Shown piece after piece: positions 298 through 55,615 of a stretch of DNA of 64,000 bases. Every line of letters starts with the position of its first letter. The first letter of the stretch is position 1. The DNA lies in the sequence record PZ445527.1, one strand, 5' to 3'. A program made the position numbers and the translations under genes. This DNA is from a phage. Below the pieces are notes generated by a model. That model worked only from the letters and a program-made list of their open reading frames with translations. It ran no database searches and had not been told where the DNA came from.

Positions 298-669
298 TTA
301 ATGAAGTTGTTTACCACTTCTTAACATAGTGGCCGTTTCCATAAGACCTAGCGTAGCATCACGCTTATTGATCTGTTTACCAAGTTCATCAGTACGTTTA
401 CTGATGTAAGCATTAATAGCCATATTCATAGCTGTAGCGAGATCTTCTTTGGTTATCTCTTCATCGTCTAAAGCTAATTTAGCCAAAGAATCAAATGTGC
501 TAGAGAGTCCTATAAGATCTGAGGTTTCTCCAGCCAAAATAGGATTAATATTATCTACTGTTACTTCTAGCATGGAGTTGACAATATCTTCACCGTCTAT
601 TAGACCAGTTTCAATATTACTCTCCCACTCCTTCATCTGCTCCAATAATGGATTTTTCTTTTCTGTCAT
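298..669 (-). CDS. hypothetical protein (about 123 aa; the ORF is open to 735)
   Basis: Track ORF 298..735. The internal ATG at 669 (MTEKKNPLLEQ) reduces overlap with the upstream ORF. Acidic helical protein. Confidence 0.5.
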   Translation of the reverse strand: MTEKKNPLLEQMKEWESNIETGLIDGEDIVNSMLEVTVDNINPILAGETSDLIGLSSTFDSLAKLALDDEEITKEDLATAMNMAINAYISKRTDELGKQINKRDATLGLMETATMLRSGKQLH

Positions 670-5367: not shown

Positions 5368-5907
5368 TTACTTGTTAAGCTCTTCTAAATCTGGTATATA
5401 TCCAAGAAACTCCTCAATTAAAGCGTACTCCCCAGCAATCTCCTGTCTAGACTTATTCGCTAAGTCTACTGCCAGAGCTAAGTCTTCATAATTGAAGGTT
5501 CCTTTCATACGTTTTCGGCCTGTTTCATCCGTAATTTGAACTCTCCATTTCTGCCTATCTTTAGCCCACATAACATTTGCATATCCAGATTTGGACTTTC
5601 TATGCTTCTTATTACGACAATTTTGTGGTTTAGATGCAGAACGTAAGTTTTTCCATCGGTTATTTTGTGGATTTCTATCTATGTGATCCACAAATTCAGG
5701 TATATATCCTTCCATATATAGGAAGGCCCATCTATGGGCTCCCTGCCTCTCCCCTTCCACCATTATCATTATGTAATCATTGTTATATAGAGTTCCAGCT
5801 TCCATTCCCCTCTTTACATACTGATTATTACCATCTATCTTCCAGGTAAATATCCCGGTTTCTGGATTATATTCTAGTAATTCTTTTAGTCTTTCTTGAG
5901 TGATCAC
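5368..5907 (-). CDS. HNH homing endonuclease (MITQERLKEL family, copy 1)
   Basis: GTG start. HNH_3-like DHIDRNPQNNRWKNLR followed by an AP2-like DNA-binding half. Paralogous to 29152..29694 and 55085..55615. Confidence 0.8.
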   Translation of the reverse strand: MITQERLKELLEYNPETGIFTWKIDGNNQYVKRGMEAGTLYNNDYIMIMVEGERQGAHRWAFLYMEGYIPEFVDHIDRNPQNNRWKNLRSASKPQNCRNKKHRKSKSGYANVMWAKDRQKWRVQITDETGRKRMKGTFNYEDLALAVDLANKSRQEIAGEYALIEEFLGYIPDLEELNK

Positions 5908-17940: not shown

Positions 17941-18017
17941 TGGCGCGACTGATGGGATTTGAACCCACATTCCCTCCCGTGATAGGGGAGTACCATTACC
18001 AAGCCAGCCACGGTCGC
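17941..18017 (-). tRNA. tRNA-Asp-type with anticodon AUC (A34)
   Basis: Acceptor GCGACCG/CAGTCGC, CTCCC-CTATCAC-GGGAG, GTGGG-TTCAAAT-CCCAT, encoded CCA. The loop differs from the Asp CTGTCAC loop only at position 34. Confidence 0.7.
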
Positions 18018-18552: not shown

Positions 18553-18628
18553 TGGACGACCGCATGAGGATTGAACTCACATAAAAAGGATTTGCAATCC
18601 TTCGCCTAAGCCATTCAGCCAACGGTCG
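18553..18628 (-). tRNA. tRNA-Cys(GCA)
   Basis: Acceptor CGACCGT/GCGGTCG, AAGGA-TTGCAAA-TCCTT, GTGAG-TTCAATC-CTCAT, encoded CCA. The 5' 14 nt overlap the end of ORF 18615..18806. Confidence 0.85.
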
Positions 18629-18806
18629 ATTTATCTTGTTTTTCGAGATCTTCAAACTCTAAATCATTGAAGTTCCCTAGAGTACGGGTATAGAACCCAT
18701 CCCCTGCGTCATAGCCTGATTTACCACAATCACACATTTTAAATTCGCGCAGGTGTGTGAAAACATGTTCAGAACCACAACACTTAAATCTAACTAATCG
18801 TTTCAT
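18615..18806 (-). CDS. zinc-finger protein (63 aa)
   Basis: First ORF after promoter 18835..18863, with CC...CDC cysteine pairs. The stop lies inside tRNA-Cys. Confidence 0.55.
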   Translation of the reverse strand: MKRLVRFKCCGSEHVFTHLREFKMCDCGKSGYDAGDGFYTRTLGNFNDLEFEDLEKQDKSTVG

Positions 18807-18834: not shown

Positions 18835-18863
18835 ATTATATAGAACTTTTGGGAACTAAGCAA
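18835..18863 (-). promoter_or_regulatory. T5-type early promoter (TTGCTT-17-TATAAT)
   Basis: Hexamers and 17-nt spacer read directly. Confidence 0.75.
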
Positions 18864-19128
18864 CTACATTTTTTAAGAATTTGATGCCTTTCTTTTTCTT
18901 CTTATATTTCCACGTTAATGGATTCTGTCGATTATGAACGCTTGAGATCTTTGTCTCGTCAAAGTTCTTCAATATCATGTAATCACAAGATAATTGTTCT
19001 AGTGGAATGTGATCACCGTCAAAAGCGTATACATAAGGCTGTTGACTAGCACGATAATGATAGACTTTGTTAATTCTACGTTTCAGCGACTTATCCGCGC
19101 AGTAAATAAAGAAGTTTTAAGGGTGCAT
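18856..19128 (-). pseudogene. ORF interrupted by an in-frame TAA after codon 3
   Basis: AAGGAG-ATGCTG-ATG CAC CCT TAA, then 86 further sense codons open in the same frame (NFFIYCADKSLKRRINKVYHYRASQQPYVYAFDGDH...) before the terminal TAG. No alternative start follows the stop. Confidence 0.5.
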
Positions 19129-19145
19129 CAGCATCTCCTTCAATT

Positions 19146-19229
19146 TGGTGCATCGTGCTGGATTTGAACCACCAACCCCGAAGGGCACGGATTTACAGAC
19201 CGCTGCAATAGCCATTCTGCCAACGATGC
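19146..19229 (-). tRNA. tRNA-Tyr(GUA), class II
   Basis: Perfect acceptor GCATCGT/ACGATGC, anticodon loop CTGTAAA, variable arm CCC-TTCG-GGG, T loop TTCAAAT, encoded CCA. Confidence 0.85.
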
Positions 19230-29155: not shown

Positions 29156-29694
29156 TTATTAAGTTCCTCTAAAATAGGGGGTGGTTTTGTGGAATCAAAA
29201 GTTTCTATAACAGCGTTTTTACCGTGTAACTGTAGACGAAGTTCATTGGCACATTGAATGGCGGATTCTAGGTCTTTGTACTCAAAATAACCACCATATA
29301 CTGACTTTTTATCGGAGTCTCTAACATGTACTTGCCATTTCTGATTTTGCCTATTCCAGCTAATTCCTAGATAACCAGATTTACTTCTAGTGGTTTTATT
29401 TCTCTGATTCTCTTGGTAATTAGATTTCCTGAGATTAATCCATCTATTATCATCTCGTATGCGGTTTATGTGGTCTACCATTTCCGGTAGATAGCCTTCC
29501 ATATAGAGAAATGCTAGCTGATGCGCATAATATGGATTTTTATCCACGGATATAGTTATATATCCGTCTTTTCTTAGATGACCAGCAATACTTCCTATTT
29601 TTCCGTTTCTACCCCTGACTCCCGTCCTTCTAGTAAATATTCCGGTATCGGGGTTATAATCGAATAGTTCTTTTAATCTTTCTTGTGTGATCAT
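29152..29694 (-). CDS. HNH homing endonuclease (MITQERLKEL family, copy 2)
   Basis: Same N-terminus, HNH motif (VDHINRIRDDNRWINLR) and C-terminal ...EELNK as copies 1 and 3. ATGA overlaps on both sides. Confidence 0.8.
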   Translation of the reverse strand: MITQERLKELFDYNPDTGIFTRRTGVRGRNGKIGSIAGHLRKDGYITISVDKNPYYAHQLAFLYMEGYLPEMVDHINRIRDDNRWINLRKSNYQENQRNKTTRSKSGYLGISWNRQNQKWQVHVRDSDKKSVYGGYFEYKDLESAIQCANELRLQLHGKNAVIETFDSTKPPPILEELNK

Positions 29695-30174: not shown

Positions 30175-31014
30175 TTAAGAAGACATCTTAGCTTTAAGAG
30201 CTGGGTGAGGATCATACCCCTCCAAATGGAATGACCAAGCTGCCGTATTATTTTCTAGTAAGTCGTAAAGATCTACAAATTCTGGCATTACTAGAGTCGG
30301 TAAAGGACGAGGTTTACGTTTTACCTGTTCTTCTACCTGTTCCATGTGGTCATTATAGATATGAGTATCGCCGCCACTAAAGATAAGGTAGCGAGGTTTT
30401 AATCCTGTCAGTTTTGCTAATATATGCGTTAATAAAGCATAACTAGCAATGTTGAAAGGTAAACCGAGGAAACAATCCACAGAACGTTGTGTCCATTTAA
30501 GATCTAGGTATCCATCGTTACTTACATAGCACTGGAAGCCGTAGTGACAGGGTGGTAATGCCATTTTATCAAGTTCAGCTACGTTCCATGCAGATACTAG
30601 GTGTCTGCGACCATGTGGGTTATTTTTGAGTCCCTCAATAAGTTCTATAATCTGATCTCGTCCACCAAAGTTGCGCCATTGTTTACCATATACTGGCCCT
30701 AGATTACCTTTGTCATAACCCATACTTATGGCTTGGTCTTCGTAGTTTGGAGTCCATATAGTCCATTGCCCCTCATCACACCCAAAAGTGAATACACGTA
30801 GATCATGAAGATTTGTGGAACCAGACAAGAACCATAAAAGTTCTCCTACTACTGATTTCCAGGCCAGGCGTTTAGTAGTTACAGCCGGGAACCCTTCACG
30901 TAGATCGAACTTAGCATAGGAATCAAAAATTGAAACTGTGCCTGTTCCTGTACGGTCATTACGGGGTTCACCTAGTAAAATTACATCTGTCAAAATTTTT
31001 AAGTATTGTTGCAT
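30175..31014 (-). CDS. thyA: thymidylate synthase (279 aa)
   Basis: MQQYL...RNDRTGTGT...LPPCHYGFQCYV (catalytic Cys)...DTHIY motifs. Confidence 0.92.
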   Translation of the reverse strand: MQQYLKILTDVILLGEPRNDRTGTGTVSIFDSYAKFDLREGFPAVTTKRLAWKSVVGELLWFLSGSTNLHDLRVFTFGCDEGQWTIWTPNYEDQAISMGYDKGNLGPVYGKQWRNFGGRDQIIELIEGLKNNPHGRRHLVSAWNVAELDKMALPPCHYGFQCYVSNDGYLDLKWTQRSVDCFLGLPFNIASYALLTHILAKLTGLKPRYLIFSGGDTHIYNDHMEQVEEQVKRKPRPLPTLVMPEFVDLYDLLENNTAAWSFHLEGYDPHPALKAKMSS

Positions 31015-31547
31015 TAATAAGTAACCAATTCCTGTACAAATCGCAGGCTGTTATCACTGTTTGCGCCAACTGCATAGACTAATCGAGTGGATTCATAGTT
31101 ATAATCCAGTATCATACTATCTAGGTGTGTATCTGCCTCTAGCTTCTGTTCGCTAAAGATTGTAGATACAAAAGCACTTTCAATATGCCCATGTTGGTAC
31201 ATTTCTAGAAGAAGACTAGCTCCACCTAGAACTACTGTTTGCTGATCTTTTAGAAAGGTAGGTAATGTATCACCTATCATTGATATGGGAGTGTAAATAT
31301 CGTGTGTAATATCGTCTGGCAGTGGACGATCAGCACGAATAAATAGGTCAGAAGCTCCAATCATACGTTCCCTAACGGTATATGGAAGAGCTAAATAAGT
31401 ACCCGCACCAATGATGATATTATCGGGATTCAACACGTCCAGTTGGGAATAGAAAGCATTCAGCTCTTCCTTGAAGGAGCCCCAAGGAAGCTTACCCCGG
31501 AGGCCGAACTCCCCATTCGGCCCAACTGCATACATTGCTGTAATCAT
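31014..31547 (-). CDS. frd: dihydrofolate reductase (177 aa)
   Basis: N-terminal DHFR signature with GKLPW; sits between nrdB and thyA with overlapping junctions. Confidence 0.8.
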   Translation of the reverse strand: MITAMYAVGPNGEFGLRGKLPWGSFKEELNAFYSQLDVLNPDNIIIGAGTYLALPYTVRERMIGASDLFIRADRPLPDDITHDIYTPISMIGDTLPTFLKDQQTVVLGGASLLLEMYQHGHIESAFVSTIFSEQKLEADTHLDSMILDYNYESTRLVYAVGANSDNSLRFVQELVTY

Positions 31548-32689
31548 AGGAAATCTCCAAATTCATTACCCAAATCTTTCAGGGTATCCATAGACGTTTC
31601 TGTGACTTGACCTACACGGTAGGCTGCACCAATCTGGATTTCTTGTGGAGCAGGCTGTAGAGAGGTAGTATCCAACCAGTTCATGATCCACGGAATAGGG
31701 TTTTTGGTGATTACTGGTAAGTGACTAGGCCATTCTACACCAATGTGCATAAATGCATTACGCCCCACAAAGTACAGATATTCTTCTAGAAGTTCTGCAT
31801 TCAAACCAATCAGACTACGACCTTTGAAGATGAAATGACCCCATTCAATTTCAGTTTTCAGAGTTTTCAGGAGCTGTGCTGGTGCTTTAGCCACTGCTTC
31901 ATCTACCAGATCTTTGTCAAACTGCTGGAACATAATCTGGATGATTGTTTTAGACATCTGCGTGTGAAGGGCCTCATCCTTAGCAATCAACTGCAGATTT
32001 TTAGCAATACCTTGCAGAATATCGTTCTCTGCTAACGCAAAGGTACATGCAAAGGATGCGTAGAACTGCATTGCTTCCAGACCGTAGATTGCAAAATAAG
32101 CATCTAACAGTTTAGCCTGAGTTTCACGCTTAACTTCAGGGAACTCAGTTTCTGGGTATGTATTGTCACCACGATGATCACGTACTGCGATGAAATACTG
32201 ACCTAACTGGTACAGTTCATCAAATAGTTCAACAGAATCTGCGATACGTGCAAATGCTTCTTGGTTTTTAGTTACAGAATCAATAAATTCTGCCGGATCA
32301 GTCAACACATTACGAATAATATTGCTATAGGCACGACTATGCAGGTCTTCAAAGTAGCTCCACTGTTTTAGCATTCCTTCCAGTTCAGGGCGGCTTACAA
32401 GCGGCATAATAGCTGCTTCAGGTGCGCGACTAATGAAAGAATCTGTTTGGGTCTGCCATGCTAAGTTCAGGAGTGTAATTTCCTGAATTTCACGAGGGAG
32501 GTTAGGCCATTGTTTCTTATCAGCCTCTAAACTGATTTCTGTCTCAGTCCAAAATTGAGAGCGTTGCAGAAGTGCCAGACGCTCTAATTCTGGATGTGCT
32601 ACGCGTACATAATCTGCGATACCTAGAGAATCGCCCAGGAAAAGATCAGCGTTAGTATGATCCCAATTCAGGTTTAGTAAAGTAGTCAT
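31544..32689 (-). CDS. nrdB: ribonucleotide reductase class Ia beta subunit (381 aa)
   Basis: Di-iron ligand pattern (E..H in FEDLHSRAY and KDEALH) and an acidic C-terminal alpha-binding tail. Confidence 0.9.
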   Translation of the reverse strand: MTTLLNLNWDHTNADLFLGDSLGIADYVRVAHPELERLALLQRSQFWTETEISLEADKKQWPNLPREIQEITLLNLAWQTQTDSFISRAPEAAIMPLVSRPELEGMLKQWSYFEDLHSRAYSNIIRNVLTDPAEFIDSVTKNQEAFARIADSVELFDELYQLGQYFIAVRDHRGDNTYPETEFPEVKRETQAKLLDAYFAIYGLEAMQFYASFACTFALAENDILQGIAKNLQLIAKDEALHTQMSKTIIQIMFQQFDKDLVDEAVAKAPAQLLKTLKTEIEWGHFIFKGRSLIGLNAELLEEYLYFVGRNAFMHIGVEWPSHLPVITKNPIPWIMNWLDTTSLQPAPQEIQIGAAYRVGQVTETSMDTLKDLGNEFGDFL

Positions 32690-32720
32690 TGATTTTCCTC
32701 TTTCTCACTATTTCAGGAAT

Positions 32721-32749
32721 ATTATAGCAAATCAGATAGCGATTAGCAA
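32721..32749 (-). promoter_or_regulatory. T5-type early promoter (TTGCTA-17-TATAAT) for nrdB-frd-thyA
   Basis: Hexamers and spacer read directly. Confidence 0.75.
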
Positions 32750-32755
32750 GTAAAA

Positions 32756-33247
32756 TTATAAACTATCAAGCTCCAATAGTTTAGCATCACGCCATTCTAT
32801 AGCATCCTCTAATTCTTTAAATGTTTTTGTATATTTTACGCCTTTACGAGCTATCTGGACTTGATATGATCCACTAGCTTTTTGATGAATATTTTTAATA
32901 CCTAGCTTATTGTCTTTATGCGCCCCGACATTCTTTCCGTTACTGAATCTATCAGAAGCTACTAGGTTAATAGCTCTATTATCATGTCGTATTCTATTAT
33001 CGTGGTCTACTTCAGGTGGCAGATACCCATGAATTTTAGCAAAGATTACCCTATGGGCTAAGTAGGGGTATCCTTTAATATTTAATACTATATATCCTGT
33101 AGATTTATCTAAGGAGCCTGCTGGTTTTCCGGCATATTTGGTATTAAATGTTTTATTATCTCTAGGTCTATGAGTCAATATTCCAGTATATGGATCATAA
33201 TCAAATAATTTAGCTACCTCTAGATGATCTTCTAATGTTTTTGACAT
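32756..33247 (-). CDS. HNH homing endonuclease between nrdA and nrdB (about 163 aa)
   Basis: HNH_3 motif VDHDNRIRHDNRAINL plus an AP2-like C-terminal half. The track ORF starts at 33262, but MSKTLEDH at 33247 is more likely. Confidence 0.8.
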   Translation of the reverse strand: MSKTLEDHLEVAKLFDYDPYTGILTHRPRDNKTFNTKYAGKPAGSLDKSTGYIVLNIKGYPYLAHRVIFAKIHGYLPPEVDHDNRIRHDNRAINLVASDRFSNGKNVGAHKDNKLGIKNIHQKASGSYQVQIARKGVKYTKTFKELEDAIEWRDAKLLELDSL

Positions 33248-33311
33248 AATTATAATTTCCAACCAATTAGTATAAAAATAAGAGGGTTATAATTAACCCT
33301 CTTTACTAGTT

Positions 33312-36300
33312 TTATAAGGTGCAGCCACCTGAAGAACATCCTGTAGTTTCTCCAGCTCCTCCACCATTCGCAGTGTTAAAGTTAGCATAATACCAGGTTT
33401 TTATACCATACTTAACCGCAGTCATAAAGTCACGAACTACTACTGGGCCAGGGATGATTTCATTCTCGAATTTAGAGTAATCATAATACATCTGGAAACT
33501 TGATGACTGACTCAAGAATTTTTGGTAAACGGCGTTCCACTTGATCCACTCAATACGATCTACATCATAGGCCAGTTTATAGCTCATGAGAGTATCCCAA
33601 TCAGTTGCACCTGGGGCAATTGCAATTACTTTATTCACTGCACTACCCTTGATAGATACAATCTTACGAGGTGGTTCAATAGAGTTAGTAACGCCTAACA
33701 GAACAGAGGAACTTTCTCCCGGCATCTGCGCAGTCAGAACAGAGTTACGCATACCGTATTTCAGAATGTCTGCACGCAGAGATTCCCAATCCATTTCTAG
33801 ACCTACGGATACCAGCTCATCAACAGTTTTCTTATACGTGTCGATTACCAGAATTCCTTTGGATGGTTTAGTACGATTAAACCATTCACATGCACCTTGT
33901 TCTTTAGCCAGACGTACAGAGGCTTTATGTAGGAAGTAAGACAGTTTTTCAGCTTCACGATGAATCCAGTTACGTGCTTCAACGCCTTCATAAGCCAAAC
34001 CTTCCGCCGCCATTGCACCTGCTGCGTTCATCAGACCAATACCAACATTACGACGTTTCTTAGCCGTATATTCCATAGTTGGGAACGGATAATCCTGAAT
34101 TTCAATGATGGTATCAACGAATTTCAGGAGGATGTAGCAAGTTTTCTCCCACTCAGCCAGAGATTCCATGCGTCCTAGTACAACACCACCTAAGTTACAC
34201 AGAGATACTTCACCAATATCCTCTGGCTTCATTTGATCAAGCTGCTCTTTTGTCTTATACAGCTCTGTGATATGATGGAACGGGCGTGTAGGCTGAGTAA
34301 TTTCTACACAGTTACCCGCTAAAATGCCATTAAATACACCTAAGTTTAATTTAGGTTCTGTAAAGCAATAAGTATCACTAATACGACCAGTAAACTCAAC
34401 GTTAGTTACAGTTACAAAACGGGTTGCGTCTCTATTGGGGCGTGTTAGGTTTAAGAGTTTCTCTTTATCCAAAGAGAGTCCTAAATCTTTAAGTTTCCAG
34501 AAGCCACTACTCCCCACAATAAGCCTACTAGTCTCCTTGCAGTGGTATAGTTTACTAGTACCAGTACCATCTGGTAACTCGTGGTCACCTTCTTTGCGTC
34601 CTAAAATAATCTTGCTAGTAACCCCCAATTCTAGTAACAAATCCTTCACTTTACTTAGAAAATCAGGCTCTGCCGAAGCAACCACAATACTAGGAGTTGT
34701 GCCATTTTTCTGTATGCAGCCATCTGCATCTAAATATCCCTCTAACCATTTGATACGGCTATCAATAGTATACTCTGGGCCAGGTACAAAATACTTCGGC
34801 ATTAAATCAGACTTAACAATATAGCTCAGTCTACCTGTGCTGTCCAGTAATCCACTTCCCTGAATTTCTGCGTCAATTTTATCCACTAATGGTAGTTTGC
34901 CACCTTTTTCATAGAAGTACAGCTTAGGTTCTCCATGTCTTCCATAAGTTCCATCTCCAGTGAAGAAACCGTTAGTATAAGGAGATTTTAGTACCATATT
35001 TCCATGATCTACAATAGGATTACTAAATTTAGGCATTTTCATACCTACTTGCAAGTCTACTGCTCGTACCTCTTCTAGCCCCTGTTTGAAAGAGGTACGA
35101 CGATCCTCTCTGACATATTTGGGCTGGTGGTAGAACTTATGATAAAGAGTAGATTCAATAGTAGATCCATCAGAGAATGTGATTTTTATCAACTCCTGAG
35201 CTTCCCCAGTTTTAGTAGGGATAACTGTTGACCATTCTTGTCCGTTCCAAATCTCTACTTCTTTACCAACTAAATCAATAATCTCTATGTTACCATTTTT
35301 GGTTAAAATTTTTGTTTCTGGAGCTACACAAAGGTTTGTCATACGGATTGGATCAAGGAAGTTACCGTGACGATTAGATTCCCCGATGTGGTGCGCATAC
35401 ATACGTCCTGTTTCCATTCGGATACGTAGCCAAGTATCTAGGATTTCTTTTGCAGAGACTTTAGGAGCTGCTGGAACTGTTTTTCCTTCGTGGTCGATCT
35501 TTGTAAGAGATGCCACACGTTTCTCCGCTGCCACGTAGATTTCTTCAAATTTAGCCTCGTCATCACTATAAAACGCTTCATGAACTTCTGGAGCATAGAA
35601 GTATGACATTAGCGTAATATCTTCATTTTTCAGATAACGTTTTAACAAAAGATTGTTGAAGCTCAGAGAATAATCCATCTTATCAATTTTATTCTCGTCT
35701 GTAGCACGTTGTTGCTTAACCTGCATCAACTGAATGATTTCAGGGTCAAAGTATGGATAAGACACTGTAGCAGAACCACCACGAGTTTGCTGAGTATTGG
35801 CCTTTACTGAGCGATCAATGTGTCGATAATATGGCAGTTTTCCGGAATGCGGGAATGCCCCATTTCGCACCGGATCAGCAATTGATCTGCTTTCAAGATG
35901 ATACCCGATTCCCGCTCTGGCTGCAACCATTTTGAAGACGATGTGCTCGGCGGTGTCGATTGAATCCAACGTGTCAGTGGAATCCACGAGGCAGCAACTA
36001 GCAAATCCACGGTCACTAGAGCGCAGACCAACCAGTGGCGGCGTAGGAACGTTGATTTTGTGGAGCGACATTGCGTTGTAGAGGTCGATTGCATCTAGAA
36101 TTGTCCAGTTAGGTTGAGATAACATCGCCATTGCCATACCCATGTAGGCAAACTGCGGAGTTTCATAAATTTCACCAGTGGCTATGTTGCGGCGGGAATA
36201 CTTATCAAAGAACTGCTTCAGTCCACCACTAGTAAAAAGACGGTCACGATCATGGTCGATAACCTGATTCAGAGCTTCAAATTGCTCATCGGTAATCCAT

Positions 36301-36659
36301 GCACTCATGTCTTCCCATGCACCTACGCTAACCATGTGGTCATGGAAGAAGCGCAGAGAAGGTGGTTCGAAGGAATCATAAAGGCGTTTACGCATTTGCG
36401 CAAGACGTAATTCCTTTGCTGGCACATCGTATGCTGGGTTATCTTTGATAAGGCTTTCAGCAGCCTTAATTAATGCGTCCATCAGAGTGTCGGAATCTAC
36501 AACCCCTTTAGGCAGAGTTTTTTGAGCAGCCATAGTAATGGCTGACCAACTTACATCAACTGTTTTGCAACCATACTCTGCCCAACCATTGAGTTTTTCA
36601 GGAGCAAAGTCTTCTACAGTACCGTCACGTTTAATTACTTTTTCAATGCGATGGCTCAT
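33312..36659 (-). CDS. nrdA: ribonucleotide reductase class Ia alpha subunit precursor containing an intein (1115 aa; about 775 aa after splicing)
   Basis: ATP-cone (VIKRDGTVEDF), RNR barrel motifs and a C-terminal CSSGGC redox pair. Start at ATG 36659 after AAGGAAAA; the track ORF extends to 36764 across the promoter. Confidence 0.9.
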   Translation of the reverse strand: MSHRIEKVIKRDGTVEDFAPEKLNGWAEYGCKTVDVSWSAITMAAQKTLPKGVVDSDTLMDALIKAAESLIKDNPAYDVPAKELRLAQMRKRLYDSFEPPSLRFFHDHMVSVGAWEDMSAWITDEQFEALNQVIDHDRDRLFTSGGLKQFFDKYSRRNIATGEIYETPQFAYMGMAMAMLSQPNWTILDAIDLYNAMSLHKINVPTPPLVGLRSSDRGFASCCLVDSTDTLDSIDTAEHIVFKMVAARAGIGYHLESRSIADPVRNGAFPHSGKLPYYRHIDRSVKANTQQTRGGSATVSYPYFDPEIIQLMQVKQQRATDENKIDKMDYSLSFNNLLLKRYLKNEDITLMSYFYAPEVHEAFYSDDEAKFEEIYVAAEKRVASLTKIDHEGKTVPAAPKVSAKEILDTWLRIRMETGRMYAHHIGESNRHGNFLDPIRMTNLCVAPETKILTKNGNIEIIDLVGKEVEIWNGQEWSTVIPTKTGEAQELIKITFSDGSTIESTLYHKFYHQPKYVREDRRTSFKQGLEEVRAVDLQVGMKMPKFSNPIVDHGNMVLKSPYTNGFFTGDGTYGRHGEPKLYFYEKGGKLPLVDKIDAEIQGSGLLDSTGRLSYIVKSDLMPKYFVPGPEYTIDSRIKWLEGYLDADGCIQKNGTTPSIVVASAEPDFLSKVKDLLLELGVTSKIILGRKEGDHELPDGTGTSKLYHCKETSRLIVGSSGFWKLKDLGLSLDKEKLLNLTRPNRDATRFVTVTNVEFTGRISDTYCFTEPKLNLGVFNGILAGNCVEITQPTRPFHHITELYKTKEQLDQMKPEDIGEVSLCNLGGVVLGRMESLAEWEKTCYILLKFVDTIIEIQDYPFPTMEYTAKKRRNVGIGLMNAAGAMAAEGLAYEGVEARNWIHREAEKLSYFLHKASVRLAKEQGACEWFNRTKPSKGILVIDTYKKTVDELVSVGLEMDWESLRADILKYGMRNSVLTAQMPGESSSVLLGVTNSIEPPRKIVSIKGSAVNKVIAIAPGATDWDTLMSYKLAYDVDRIEWIKWNAVYQKFLSQSSSFQMYYDYSKFENEIIPGPVVVRDFMTAVKYGIKTWYYANFNTANGGGAGETTGCSSGGCTL
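34311..35330 (-). mobile_element. intein (340 aa) with a LAGLIDADG homing-endonuclease domain, inserted in the NrdA catalytic N-L-C-x-E loop
   Basis: N-terminus MTNL|CVAPETKILT, C-terminus GILAGN|CVEITQPT. Dodecapeptide motifs NGFFTGDGTYG and LEGYLDADGCIQ. Confidence 0.85.
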
Positions 36660-36697
36660 TTGGTTTTCCTTTTTATAGTTATCAGGATTTAAGGAAT

Positions 36698-36726
36698 ATT
36701 CTACATTATTATTGGTCATTAGGCAA
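36698..36726 (-). promoter_or_regulatory. sigma70 promoter of nrdA (TTGCCT-17-TAGAAT)
   Basis: Hexamers and spacer read directly, between the terminator and the nrdA RBS. Confidence 0.6.
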
Positions 36727-36742
36727 ATAAAATTTTCTGATA

Positions 36743-36774
36743 GAAAAGGCCCGAGTATTTTCATACCCAGGCCC
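36743..36774 (-). terminator. rho-independent terminator
   Basis: A 10-bp stem GGCCTGGGTA/TACTCGGGCC (two G:U pairs), loop TGAAAA, followed by TTTTCT. Confidence 0.7.
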
Positions 36775-36803
36775 TCTGTGTTGTCAGTCTAGTTTTTGGC
36801 CAC

Positions 36804-37001
36804 TTAAGTTCTCAGCAGAATATCTATCGAGGTACTTAGTTCACTATAATTGAAGGGCCGATTTGGATTTGAGGTTACAATTTTCCACGCTAGGGTAGTC
36901 TTAGGACTTTCTTCCCCTTCCTTACGTGTAATCATATTAGCAGCGCTCAGTGAAGTACGATGTATTTTAGTTTTTCGGTGTAGATGTACAACGTCTCCCA
37001 T
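36804..37001 (-). CDS. hypothetical small protein (65 aa)
   Basis: ATG 37001 lies 2 nt after the phoH stop, with AAGGTG as RBS. The track's 88-aa version overlaps phoH. Confidence 0.45.
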   Translation of the reverse strand: MGDVVHLHRKTKIHRTSLSAANMITRKEGEESPKTTLAWKIVTSNPNRPFNYSELSTSIDILLRT

Positions 37002-37002
37002 A

Positions 37003-37755
37003 TTACACCTTCCCCATGTCTTTAAAAATATCGTAGAATGCTTTAGACTCAGCAGAACGAACGTTATCAATTAATTCGATCATTGAGAATGGAGCATTTT
37101 CATATTTCTCATAAACTTCCATAAGAAGTGCTAGACCTGAGTCACCTTTAATGTCTTTCTGAGCTATATCCCCGCAGATAATCAAACGGCAGTCTTGTCC
37201 TACACGAGTTAGGAGACAAACCATTGCCTCAACGGAAATATTCTGAGCTTCATCGACAATTACATAGGAGTTGTTGAAAGTTCTGCCACGAGCATGTTCT
37301 ATAGCCAAAAATTTAATTTTCTGACGTTCGACATATCCCTTATAGGCATGATCACCGATGGCCCATTTCATACCATCAGCTATTGGCTCCAACCAAGGCT
37401 CTAGCTTTTCGGCTAGATCACCAGGAAGCATACCAAGAGACTTACCTAGAGGTTCATTAGGACGTACGAGAATCACTTGCTCAATATCTGAGTGAATGTC
37501 TACGAGTTCCTGAGCTGCAAGAACGGACGGAATAAAGGTTTTACCAGTACCTGGCTCACCGATACCCACAGTCACTGTGTTGTTCTTGATCATATTGATA
37601 TATGATTTTTGCTCGCGGTTTTTACCTACTAGGGATTTAGCAACTGGGTTAGCGTAATCATTAGAAAAATCAGCCTGAATTACGTTATTCTCATATTTGT
37701 TGCCACGCTTTCTTGAACCATTGCGGTTCTCTCTTTTTTGACGTGCTTTTCCCAT
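37003..37755 (-). CDS. phoH: PhoH-like ATPase (250 aa)
   Basis: Walker A GEPGTGKTF and Walker B VIVDEAQN. ATG 37755 is 8 nt after TAGGAG, whereas the GTG at 37764 abuts the RBS. Confidence 0.85.
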   Translation of the reverse strand: MGKARQKRENRNGSRKRGNKYENNVIQADFSNDYANPVAKSLVGKNREQKSYINMIKNNTVTVGIGEPGTGKTFIPSVLAAQELVDIHSDIEQVILVRPNEPLGKSLGMLPGDLAEKLEPWLEPIADGMKWAIGDHAYKGYVERQKIKFLAIEHARGRTFNNSYVIVDEAQNISVEAMVCLLTRVGQDCRLIICGDIAQKDIKGDSGLALLMEVYEKYENAPFSMIELIDNVRSAESKAFYDIFKDMGKV

Positions 37756-37830
37756 AAATAACACTCCTATAGTGTACTTCGCTTCTAACAGAGGATCAAC
37801 AAAAGATCTTGTTTATCAACTTACAAATAT

Positions 37831-37859
37831 ATTATACCAGTATATACAGTAAAAAGCAA
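37831..37859 (-). promoter_or_regulatory. T5-type early promoter (TTGCTT-17-TATAAT) for phoH, leftward arm of the divergent region
   Basis: Hexamers read directly; about 70-nt 5' UTR. Confidence 0.7.
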
Positions 37860-37904
37860 CTACAATTTTAAATAAGCCTATGATATTGCATTTAAATAAA
37901 AAAT

Positions 37905-37933
37905 TTGCTTGCTTATAGAGGTAGAAATATGAT
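37905..37933 (+). promoter_or_regulatory. sigma70 promoter (TTGCTT-17-TATGAT), rightward
   Basis: Hexamers and spacer read directly in the AT-rich divergent region. Confidence 0.5.
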
Positions 37934-38030
37934 ACTAGATAATCATTTATTTATATGTAAAAATACTATGCTGTATAGCATCAATAAAAATTGATAAAAA
38001 TCAAAAGTCAAATAGTATTAGAAAAATGTA

Positions 38031-38059
38031 GTTGACGTATGGGGTGGAATTATGTATAA
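38031..38059 (+). promoter_or_regulatory. sigma70 promoter (TTGACG-17-TATAAT), rightward
   Basis: Hexamers read directly, 22 nt upstream of the AAGGAG RBS of ORF 38082. Confidence 0.7.
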
Positions 38060-38081
38060 TATGTGAATTAAGGAGAATTTA

Positions 38082-38747
38082 ATGGTAAGAAAGAAAATAA
38101 CTACAGAAGATGTGAACTTAGCACTTGCTCCCAGAGGAATAATTATGCTAAGCACGTATATATCAGCTAAATCCAATGCTATATTTAAGTGCTCTAATGG
38201 GCATAGTTGGGAGGCTAGAGTAGATAATGTAAAAGGTGGGAGAGGTTGCCCTTATTGTGCTAGTCGTACTTTAGATCTTAAAGAGGTAAATGAATCCTTA
38301 GCTGCTCGTGGAATAAAGATGGAAGGTAAATACATCAATTCTAAGAGTAAAATTATGTTCAGCTGTGAGAATGATCATAGGTGGGAGTCTACCCTTGATA
38401 GTGTTAGAAATCATAATTCTGGTTGTCCTATATGTTTATTAGAGAAGGATAATTATCCTACTAACGTATATATTTTAGTAAGTAGTATGGGAACCAAAAT
38501 AGGGATGTCTAGCAGAACTAAAGATAGACTCAGAGATATTAAAACTTCTTCTAACATACATGATTTAAAAATATTTAAGGAATATAGCTTTTCAGATAGA
38601 TCAAAAGCTGTGCGTATTGAAAGAGAAGCCCATTTACAGTTTAAGGAATATAATTGTCAGTACAAAGATTTTGATGGTGCTACAGAATTTTTTAGTATTG
38701 AGCCAGAAGTAGTAGCAAGGTTTATTGAGGAAATAATTAATGAATAA
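38082..38747 (+). CDS. T5orf172 (GIY-YIG-related) domain protein with two N-terminal zinc ribbons (221 aa)
   Basis: Duplicated C..H...C..C modules (CSNGHSWE...CPYC, CENDHRWE...CPIC), then VYILVSSMGTKIGMS...RLRDI...GATEFF. Confidence 0.7.
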   Translation: MVRKKITTEDVNLALAPRGIIMLSTYISAKSNAIFKCSNGHSWEARVDNVKGGRGCPYCASRTLDLKEVNESLAARGIKMEGKYINSKSKIMFSCENDHRWESTLDSVRNHNSGCPICLLEKDNYPTNVYILVSSMGTKIGMSSRTKDRLRDIKTSSNIHDLKIFKEYSFSDRSKAVRIEREAHLQFKEYNCQYKDFDGATEFFSIEPEVVARFIEEIINE

Positions 38748-40686: not shown

Positions 40687-41067
40687 ATGAAAGTAAAACC
40701 CTATATAGTTGAGTCTACGTGCGGGAGTTTCCATCTAGGAGTGGATGATATTGCAGAAGCTATCTTTGCTGCTACAGGTGATTACTCCCATATAGGGGGT
40801 GCTGCATACCCCACCGTTATTGGTGATTGGGCGGAAACAAATCTAGATGTATCACCATATAGCTCACATTGCTTGTTTGATGAAGACAGAGATGAGGTAA
40901 AATGTAATCTTGAATTTGTATACAATAGAGTACTAAAAGTCTATCAACACAGTGTTGAGGGATATGAAGATATTACTGGAAGTATTAAACAATATCTTAA
41001 AGATGTATACTCTAATTTTTCTGATGAAGACCTGGAAACAGTTGCAGTGGAGTTTAATAATGACTAA
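40687..41067 (+). CDS. hypothetical acidic protein (126 aa)
   Basis: First ORF after promoter 40630..40658. Confidence 0.6.
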   Translation: MKVKPYIVESTCGSFHLGVDDIAEAIFAATGDYSHIGGAAYPTVIGDWAETNLDVSPYSSHCLFDEDRDEVKCNLEFVYNRVLKVYQHSVEGYEDITGSIKQYLKDVYSNFSDEDLETVAVEFNND

Positions 41068-42360: not shown

Positions 42361-42854
42361 TACTCCGATTATTTTTCTAGACATTGATGGGGTGCTCAAT
42401 TCGAGCATCTCCCACCATCATGCACCTGATGATGAAAAGATTTTCTTTGGAAGTGACTGGGTTTTCAAACCGCTTCTCAAGGCTTTTCAGGACTTTATTC
42501 GTCCTTCTCCGATAATGATTGTTGGAGTATCCTCATGGTTCTCTGTCAGGAATGAGGTGGAGAACGTTCACATTATGACCGGATTAGGTCTTATCGATCG
42601 TTTTCTAGGTACAACGGATTTTACAGGGGGGTGGATTATCTAGGGGTAATTCTGTTCTTCGTTTCGTTGAAAAGCATAAGCTCAAACATTGGTGTGTGCT
42701 GGATGATGCTGGTGCTATGATGTATCAGTATCCAACAGTTATAGTCAATGGTAGGACTGGGATAAATCTTCAAGATTTAAAAGCTGTTAGCTATATGCTA
42801 GAATTTAGCCCAGATCTTGAAATGTGTAAATCCTTACAACAATTTAAGGTGTAA
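42347..42854 (+). pseudogene. HAD-superfamily phosphatase-like gene disrupted by a +1 frameshift in a G6 run
   Basis: Frame A (IIFLDIDGVLNS, HAD motif I) stops at 42641..42643. The next frame continues GGLSRGNSVLRFVEKHKLKHWCVLDDAG to 42854. Deleting one G at 42626..42631 restores one ORF. Confidence 0.7.
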
Positions 42855-47402: not shown

Positions 47403-47974
47403 TGTTTATAAGAATTCCTAAATTTCCTGACTATGCAGTGAATGAAAATGGAGAGGTGTATTCTTTTCTCTCCTACAAGTTTCTTACTCCAGGTCAAAAT
47501 ACTGCTGGGTACTTACAAGTTAATTTAATGAAGGACGGTCCCCCTATAAATATGAGGGTGCATAGGTTAGTAGCCTATTGTTTTGGACTACTTCCTGGGT
47601 TAGAATCAGAATTGGTAGTAGACCATATAAATGATGATAAGTTAGATCCTAGACTATCTAACTTGCAGGTATTAACCTACAGAGCTAATGCAATAAAATT
47701 TCATAATAAAAATTGGAGAGAACATCCAGATTTCCTAGTAGAAATTAAGAAATTAGAAAGTATGGGCATAACTAAAGCAGCTGCATCCTATAGGCGCAAG
47801 GCTATGCTTAAATACATTGTGGCTGTTCCCTCTAGTGATACTCTAACCTTAGAATTAATAGAATCTACATATCAGAAAACCAATTCTTGGAGAAAAACTG
47901 CTAGAGTGCTTGGATTTAAAAGCGCCCCAGCTATTCTTTATAGATATAACAAGCTGAAAGCAGCTTCTTTATAA
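47402..47974 (+). CDS. HNH homing endonuclease (NUMOD4 plus HNH_3 type, 190 aa)
   Basis: N-terminal IPKFPDYAVNENGEVYS and HNH motif VDHINDDKLDPRLSNLQVLTYRANA. Confidence 0.8.
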   Translation: MFIRIPKFPDYAVNENGEVYSFLSYKFLTPGQNTAGYLQVNLMKDGPPINMRVHRLVAYCFGLLPGLESELVVDHINDDKLDPRLSNLQVLTYRANAIKFHNKNWREHPDFLVEIKKLESMGITKAAASYRRKAMLKYIVAVPSSDTLTLELIESTYQKTNSWRKTARVLGFKSAPAILYRYNKLKAASL

Positions 47975-55088: not shown

Positions 55089-55615
55089 TAACACAGGAAC
55101 GACTAAAAGAACTGTTTGACTACTCCCCAGAGACTGGGGAGTTTACTAGAAAAGTATCTAGAGGCAATCAGAAAGCTGGTAGTATTGCGGGTACTCTAGA
55201 TAGTGGATACATACGGATAAGGGTAGATAGAAAATTATACTTTGCACACCAACTAGCCTTCCTATACATGGAAGGATATATGCCAGAGGAAGTAGACCAT
55301 ATTAATCGAATTACTTGGGATAATAGATGGATTAATATTAGGCCATCCACCCGGCAAGAAAATAGCAGAAATAAAACAGCTAGAAGTAAATCTGGATACT
55401 TGGGAGTTTTCTGGTTTAAGCGGGATCACAAATGGCATGTAAGAGTAGTAAATTCTATGGGAGAAAAAGTTCACGGTGGGCTCTTTAATTACGCAGATCT
55501 AAAGCTTGCAGTCACTAAAGCCAATGAACTACGTCTACAATTACATGGAGAAAATGCTGTTCAAGAGATCTTTGATCCAACTAAGTATCCTTCACTGGAG
55601 GAGTTAAATTCATGA
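55085..55615 (+). CDS. HNH homing endonuclease (MITQERLKEL family, copy 3) between helicase and primase
   Basis: Same architecture as copies 1 and 2 (VDHINRITWDNRWINIR ...EELNS). ATGA overlaps on both sides. Confidence 0.8.
   Translation: MITQERLKELFDYSPETGEFTRKVSRGNQKAGSIAGTLDSGYIRIRVDRKLYFAHQLAFLYMEGYMPEEVDHINRITWDNRWINIRPSTRQENSRNKTARSKSGYLGVFWFKRDHKWHVRVVNSMGEKVHGGLFNYADLKLAVTKANELRLQLHGENAVQEIFDPTKYPSLEELNS

Follow-up and report, generated by a model that had tools for sequence, protein, structure and literature searches.

In the stretch of DNA analysed here (64,000 nucleotides of sequence record PZ445527.1, hereafter the window), a T5-like phage very probably carries a private and recent null allele of a small, conserved and dispensable accessory gene, the fourth codon of which has changed from GAA to TAA. 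In the mechanism that we propose, a single G-to-T transversion at position 19119 of the minus strand would have converted this Glu codon into an ochre codon. Ribosomes would still initiate from the usual RBS and ATG, synthesize Met-His-Pro and terminate. The protein, an ortholog of T5.071, would then not be made, so that the allele would be a null and, in effect, a very young pseudogene. The event is an ordinary recent loss of function and not a recoding signal.

The window belongs to a T5-like phage (Demerecviridae, Markadamsvirinae, Tequintavirus). The 801-bp neighbourhood of the ORF matched 399 phage records with a top identity of 96.6%, while for a 20-kb stretch of the window the closest relative was phage HildyBeyeler, with around 94% identity at best; this low value indicates that the window phage itself is absent from the collections. 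Along the minus strand, the CCA end of tRNA-Tyr (position 19146) is followed by AATTG, the Shine-Dalgarno sequence AAGGAG, ATGCTG, and the codons ATG (19128-19126), CAC (19125-19123), CCT (19122-19120) and TAA (19119-19117). The 86 sense codons beyond the TAA (NFFIYCADKSLKRR...GIKFLKNVVA) are closed by a TAG at 18858-18856. A previous inspection of the letters without database searches (the sequence-only reading) had described an RBS and an ATG with an in-frame TAA at codon 4 followed by 86 open codons, and all of these elements lie where it had placed them. It had also located the end of the frame inside the next promoter. Indeed, the TAG overlaps by a single base the -35 hexamer of a P14b-like promoter (TTGCTT at 18863-18858, a 17-nt spacer, and TATAAT at 18840-18835), and the alignment showed that this region is nearly base-for-base identical to the annotated P14b of T5. 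The promoter scan missed it because the -35 hexamer fits the consensus at only three of six positions. The layout suggests that tRNA-Tyr and the ORF are presumably co-transcribed. Since the gene downstream has its own P14b-like promoter, polarity of the nonsense codon should be small or negligible. The coordinates of all these features are given in Table 1.

Table 1. Features of the disrupted locus and its surroundings in the window
Feature	Coordinates	Strand	Basis
Disrupted ORF of 90 codons and a stop, orthologous to T5.071; codon 4 is TAA	18856..19128	-	Translation, ortholog alignment, PHROG match
Premature ochre codon TAA, G-to-T at 19119; GAA (Glu) in relatives	19117..19119	-	Ortholog reading, allele searches
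Start codon ATG, common to all orthologs (GTG in one)	19126..19128	-	Ortholog reading; tblastn
Shine-Dalgarno sequence AAGGAG, 6 nt before the ATG and 5 nt past the CCA end of tRNA-Tyr	19135..19140	-	Sequence
tRNA-Tyr (GTA), directly upstream of the ORF	19146..19229	-	ARAGORN; Rfam tRNA
Residual 40-aa ORF from Met51, the sole canonical restart in frame, without RBS and without the predicted conserved N-terminal beta-barrel	18856..18978	-	ORF list, structure model
P14b-like promoter, TTGCTT-17-TATAAT, overlapping the TAG of the ORF	18835..18863	-	T5 annotation, alignment
Intact 63-aa gene downstream of the ORF, served by the P14b-like promoter	18615..18806	-	Shivani annotation of the orthologous CDS

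The identity of the disrupted gene was established by similarity and by position. The ORF is orthologous to T5.071 (AAS77117.1, a hypothetical protein of 90 aa, AY543070 34806-35078), with which it shares length, start, RBS and synteny. Both in T5 and in the window, a tRNA gene precedes the ORF, the 3' end of which overlaps P14b, and a small ORF and tRNA-Cys follow; the upstream tRNA is, however, tRNA-Tyr in the window, Shivani and SHSML-45, and tRNA-Phe in T5. Once repaired with GAA at codon 4, the ORF matched PHROG 5876 over profile positions 1-90 of 90 with an E value of 4.6e-64. The residues 5-90 as encoded in the window are 99% identical to cluster P0001 and 94-100% identical to the orthologs. 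Sequence similarity and genomic position (behind a tRNA gene and before P14b and tRNA-Cys) both place the locus in this family. What sets it apart is the frame opened by the shared ATG, which is interrupted by TAA at codon 4 in the window and continues in all 28 relatives; this makes the locus an interrupted allele of a T5.071-family gene.

The family is conserved among T5-like phages (Markadamsvirinae) and constrained. Its tblastn matches lie in 400 phage records, with a coverage of at least 80% in 398, and the alignments that were sampled all begin at query residue 1. From 22 distinct orthologous sequences we obtained a pooled pS of 0.147, a pN of 0.014 and a pN/pS of 0.096, which shows that the T5.071 family is under purifying selection at the codon level. 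A profile search of 1.84 billion representatives retrieved only eight proteins, all of them small. In an alignment of ten family sequences the core reads FIYC-x5-KRRxSKVY-x8-YVY-x5-IPLxxL-x3-DYMxLK and begins, even with the remote relatives included, 1-5 residues past the initiator Met. The opening residues vary (MHPE, MHPK, MHPS, MGL, MNN), and one member, P0008, opens at MFIY. At the other end of the protein, a lysine tract (AAG AAG AAA AAG AAA, with an adjoining A-run, at 18886-18903 on the minus strand) varies by indels among the relatives. These indels, found at four ortholog loci (L019-L022) and in several INPHARED records, yield variants of 86 and 89 aa, and the corresponding tblastn alignments end at residue 73; the C-terminal tail of the orthologs seems to tolerate frameshifts.

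Searches at the level of function gave little. No Pfam family was detected at E values up to 10 for the T5.071-family protein or for ten family members, a profile search of the PDB gave no sequence match, PHROGs yielded only family 5876, which is annotated as of unknown function, and the T5.071 identifiers returned nothing from the literature. AlphaFold produced a poor model from five sequences (pLDDT 57), but with the ten-sequence alignment the pLDDT rose to 77. The latter model predicts with confidence a five-stranded N-terminal beta-barrel (pLDDT around 90), followed by a basic helix at the C-terminus, which contains the KKKKK tract and is poorly defined in the model. Foldseek comparison of the model with the PDB gave nothing significant, and with BFVD only family members. 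The nearest known systems may include the YopX-like proteins (PF09643 / 2i2l) and other small SH3/Tudor-like beta-barrel proteins of phages; as a guess from the model, the protein may be a small barrel that binds nucleic acid or protein. The label 'homing endonuclease' attached to the SIA3lw ortholog found no support, as neither Pfam nor the PDB gave a match and no nuclease was present among the significant fold matches. A degenerate GIY-YIG nuclease, which the motif VYHY...YVY might bring to mind, was discarded: no profile matched, and the positions of the catalytic Arg and Glu are absent.

We then compared codon 4 between the window and its relatives. The window ORF was aligned with the orthologs of Shivani, VAH1 and SIA3lw, and codon 4 was read in 28 orthologs, namely three INPHARED loci, 23 IMG/VR loci (one of which is T5), T5_ev212 and HildyBeyeler. 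GAA occupies this position in 27 of the 28 and AAA in the remaining one, while the start codon is the same in all, with GTG in one case; the Shine-Dalgarno sequence AAGGAG is kept in most relatives. In the more distant 90%-clusters the position is Lys, Ser or a one-residue gap. The alignment with T5-like orthologs had been set in advance as the test of the sequence-only reading, and it returned GAA as the sense codon with the same start throughout. Because all orthologs use this start codon, none begins past the TAA, the observation that would have spoken against a disrupted frame. The comparison favours the recent nonsense mutation, one of the three options that had been left side by side. 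The protein-like character that had been noted for the downstream frame also proved real, as its 86 codons are 99% identical to a cluster of 282 sequences and are not a chance ORF.

The allele itself was searched with a 33-mer centred on codon 4, megablast being forced to exact matches of the allele. In INPHARED, codons 2 to 4 read CAT CCT GAA in 325 records and CAC CCT GAA in a single record (T5_ev212), whereas neither CAC CCT TAA nor CAT CCT TAA occurred in any of the 50,697 phage records. No contig with CAY CCT TAA was found in IMG/VR, in the JGI metagenomes or in the GTDB genomes. With GAA in nearly all relatives and TAA in none of them, the TAA must have arisen from an ancestral GAA by a G>T transversion that is private to this phage. 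Compared with the relatives, the only rare bases of the window ORF are the TAA and a synonymous CAT>CAC change at codon 2, and the nearest orthologs differ from it by 4 nt in 273. This lack of secondary decay indicates that the nonsense event is recent. An undecayed frame fits a very recent event, but it would be just as intact if the base had been misread or if the frame were still in use, and these cases were considered separately.

Loss of the gene should be tolerated. The viable mutant T5Mos carries an 8-kb deletion (30661-38625 in AY543070 coordinates; PMC11464382). T5.071 lies inside this deletion at 34806-35078 and is therefore dispensable in T5, which explains why the phage tolerates the TAA. 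Deletions of the T5 tRNA region are described as non-essential in the same report (PMC11464382). T5Mos and the deletion mutants of Glukhov et al. (cited in PMC11464382) likewise lose accessory functions of the same plastic segment. T5Mos, however, removes T5.071 by a multi-kilobase deletion, whereas the window phage does so by a point nonsense mutation in one gene. The locus should thus be annotated as a disrupted (pseudogene) copy of a T5.071-family gene, and not as a 40-aa ORF or a recoding site. As a natural knockout it adds evidence that propagation does not depend on this conserved protein, or at least not on the isolation host, in agreement with the deletion mutants of T5; beyond annotation its importance is small.

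The mutational background is consistent with such an event. Around the locus, 13 private substitutions were counted in 2586 well-covered positions (about 0.5%), so that now and then a nonsense mutation is to be expected in a gene free of constraint; scaled to a whole genome of this size, the rate means hundreds of private changes. Of changes that arise at random, a few per cent produce stop codons, which persist only where the gene is dispensable. When around 95 HildyBeyeler proteins were compared with the window, an early stop was found only in the T5.071 ortholog. Such a pattern is what ordinary divergence would leave where selection on accessory genes is relaxed. Minor differences in gene length were also seen. 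CAA>TAA changes at 617-619 (minus strand) and 41065-41067 (plus strand) end two genes 1 and 5 codons before the HildyBeyeler C-terminus, and are probably harmless length variants. Single-base, frameshift-like differences relative to HildyBeyeler occur on the plus strand in small hypothetical ORFs at around 22313 and around 42621-42631, the second in a run of six G (ACAGGGGGGTGG versus AC-TGGTGGTGG); these represent genuine disruptions or else homopolymer errors of sequencing.

Among the alternatives, an error of sequencing or assembly, by which a true GAA of the phage was deposited with a miscalled T, is unlikely. It would account for a TAA allele that is found nowhere else within an otherwise pristine ORF, and the two frameshift-like differences could be homopolymer errors of the same record. 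Moreover, when the 40-aa residual ORF and three proteins encoded nearby were looked up by exact match, none was on record, and hence no second copy of the phage was found for comparison. A substitution is, however, not the typical error of homopolymer-prone platforms. The large genes for replication and nucleotide metabolism are all intact, with 94-100% amino acid identity, which argues for a good consensus, and the gene comparison as a whole argues that the assembly is generally sound. The private substitutions, at about 0.5% of well-covered sites, are also what real divergence from the relatives produces. We infer from these data that the T is genuine and not a miscalled base.

A selective origin of the null allele is decidedly unlikely. 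It would suppose that the T5.071 protein was sensed by an abortive-infection or other defence system of the host and that the phage escaped by losing it. Two T5 proteins, Ptr1 and Ptr2, are sensed by PARIS (PMC11464382). A stop at codon 4 of an undecayed ORF would fit very recent selection on the isolation host, and three private changes in tRNA-Asp, including GTC>ATC, would fit the same pressure acting on the tRNA region.

It is very improbable that the gene is still expressed, be it by readthrough, by an ochre suppressor of the host, or by reinitiation at the near-cognate ATT of codon 8. The downstream frame is intact, and the product of such residual expression would be nearly full-length, lacking only non-conserved N-terminal residues; as the first four residues are variable in the family, a protein restarted near the TAA might still fold. 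Programmed readthrough and suppressor-tRNA recoding in phages resemble the window in that an in-frame stop is followed by a long protein-like frame. The resemblance ends there, because the stop of the window is unconserved, is a UAA rather than a UGA or UAG in a leaky context, and is accompanied by no suppressor tRNA. Programmed recoding sites are normally conserved, but TAA was found in none of the records against GAA in 325, and was equally absent from IMG/VR, the JGI metagenomes and GTDB. Both release factors, RF1 and RF2, act on UAA, which in enterobacteria leaks less than the other stop codons. ARAGORN detected 12 tRNAs in the whole window, none with the anticodon TTA, which bears out the earlier remark that no UUA-anticodon suppressor is encoded. 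TAA also terminates 38 of the 56 conserved genes in the window and is therefore not reassigned. Readthrough, another of the options left by the sequence-only reading, is accordingly not supported: no relative has the TAA, UAA is an ordinary terminator in this phage, and no suppressor tRNA is encoded.

Restart of translation fares no better. No ATG, GTG or TTG lies between the TAA and codon 51, and the first such codon, Met51, is preceded by no GGAG-like RBS, in line with the earlier statement that no start codon served by an RBS follows the TAA. The ATT of codon 8 is 27 nt away from the Shine-Dalgarno sequence, and a start there would cut into the first conserved strand (FIYC) of the predicted fold. 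A product beginning at Met51 would lack the entire predicted beta-barrel, the strands of which are modelled at residues 6-53. Taken together, the unique stop, the lack of a suppressor tRNA, the use of TAA as the usual terminator and the absence of an early restart site make residual expression unlikely. Genome-wide reassignment of TAA and multiple ochre mutations were also considered and rejected, as the other in-frame TAAs lie only 1 and 5 codons before the C-terminus. A search for an RNA element at the locus with Rfam gave tRNAs only.

That the TAA is an ochre allele made in the laboratory, as a conditional marker in a mutagenized stock, is hardly credible. In its favour, the nonsense codon is clean and early in an otherwise wild-type ORF, and on the minus strand G>A and G>T account for 8 of the 13 nearby private substitutions, which could hint at biased mutation. 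T5.071 is, however, dispensable in T5, and this disqualifies it as a conditional-lethal marker. The phage differs from T5, BF23 and every other database strain (best nucleotide identity 94-97%), and no further early nonsense codon was seen in the roughly 95 genes compared. This remaining option of the sequence-only reading was set aside, the gene being dispensable in T5 and the phage no known laboratory strain.

The tRNA region that surrounds the null allele shows other signs of change. ARAGORN placed the 12 tRNA genes of the window between 15619 and 21976; T5 has 23 and HildyBeyeler about as many, and the tRNA region of the window phage is therefore strongly reduced. In T5, HildyBeyeler and most relatives, tRNA-Glu/Trp/Phe separate tRNA-Tyr from T5.071, but these genes are missing between tRNA-Tyr and the ORF in the window, Shivani and SHSML-45. 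At the junction (19141-19150, minus strand), the 3' end of tRNA-Tyr, ...GATGCACCA, is joined to AATTGAAGGAG, the spacer that usually follows tRNA-Phe; in other phages tRNA-Phe and its spacer read ...GGTGCACCA followed by AATTGAAGGAG. tRNA-Tyr and tRNA-Phe end alike in ...TGCACCA, and the junction at these 3' ends suggests a deletion by recombination between them. The disrupted T5.071 ortholog provides one more data point for the tRNA region of T5-like phages as a zone of ongoing gene loss.

The tRNA-Asp gene (17941-18017, minus strand) has the anticodon ATC, whereas GTC is found in T5, Shivani and VAH1. Its further private changes are G>T at position 8 and CGGTCGC>CAGTCGC in the 3' strand of the acceptor, the latter creating a C-A mismatch. 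Hence 3 of the 13 private substitutions of the 5-kb neighbourhood fall within these 77 nt. The ATC allele was absent from the phage collection; it may represent a decaying tRNA, or a variant with altered specificity or resistance to nucleases.

Outside this region, the alpha subunit of ribonucleotide reductase, NrdA (33312-36764, minus strand), is encoded by one continuous ORF of 1150 aa, which relative to the NrdA of HildyBeyeler contains an in-frame insertion of around 338 aa (approximately 34311-35324). Judged from the residues at its boundaries (...TNLC/VAPETK... and ...GILAGN/CVEITQ), the insertion looks like an intein. Five stretches of the window (5632-5889, 29398-29676, 32918-33217, 47495-47695 and 55103-55372) have 30-36% amino acid identity to HildyBeyeler bas33_0076, an insert-containing protein that is annotated as intein-containing. 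On the basis of this similarity, they are presumably multiple genes of the homing-endonuclease type scattered through the window.
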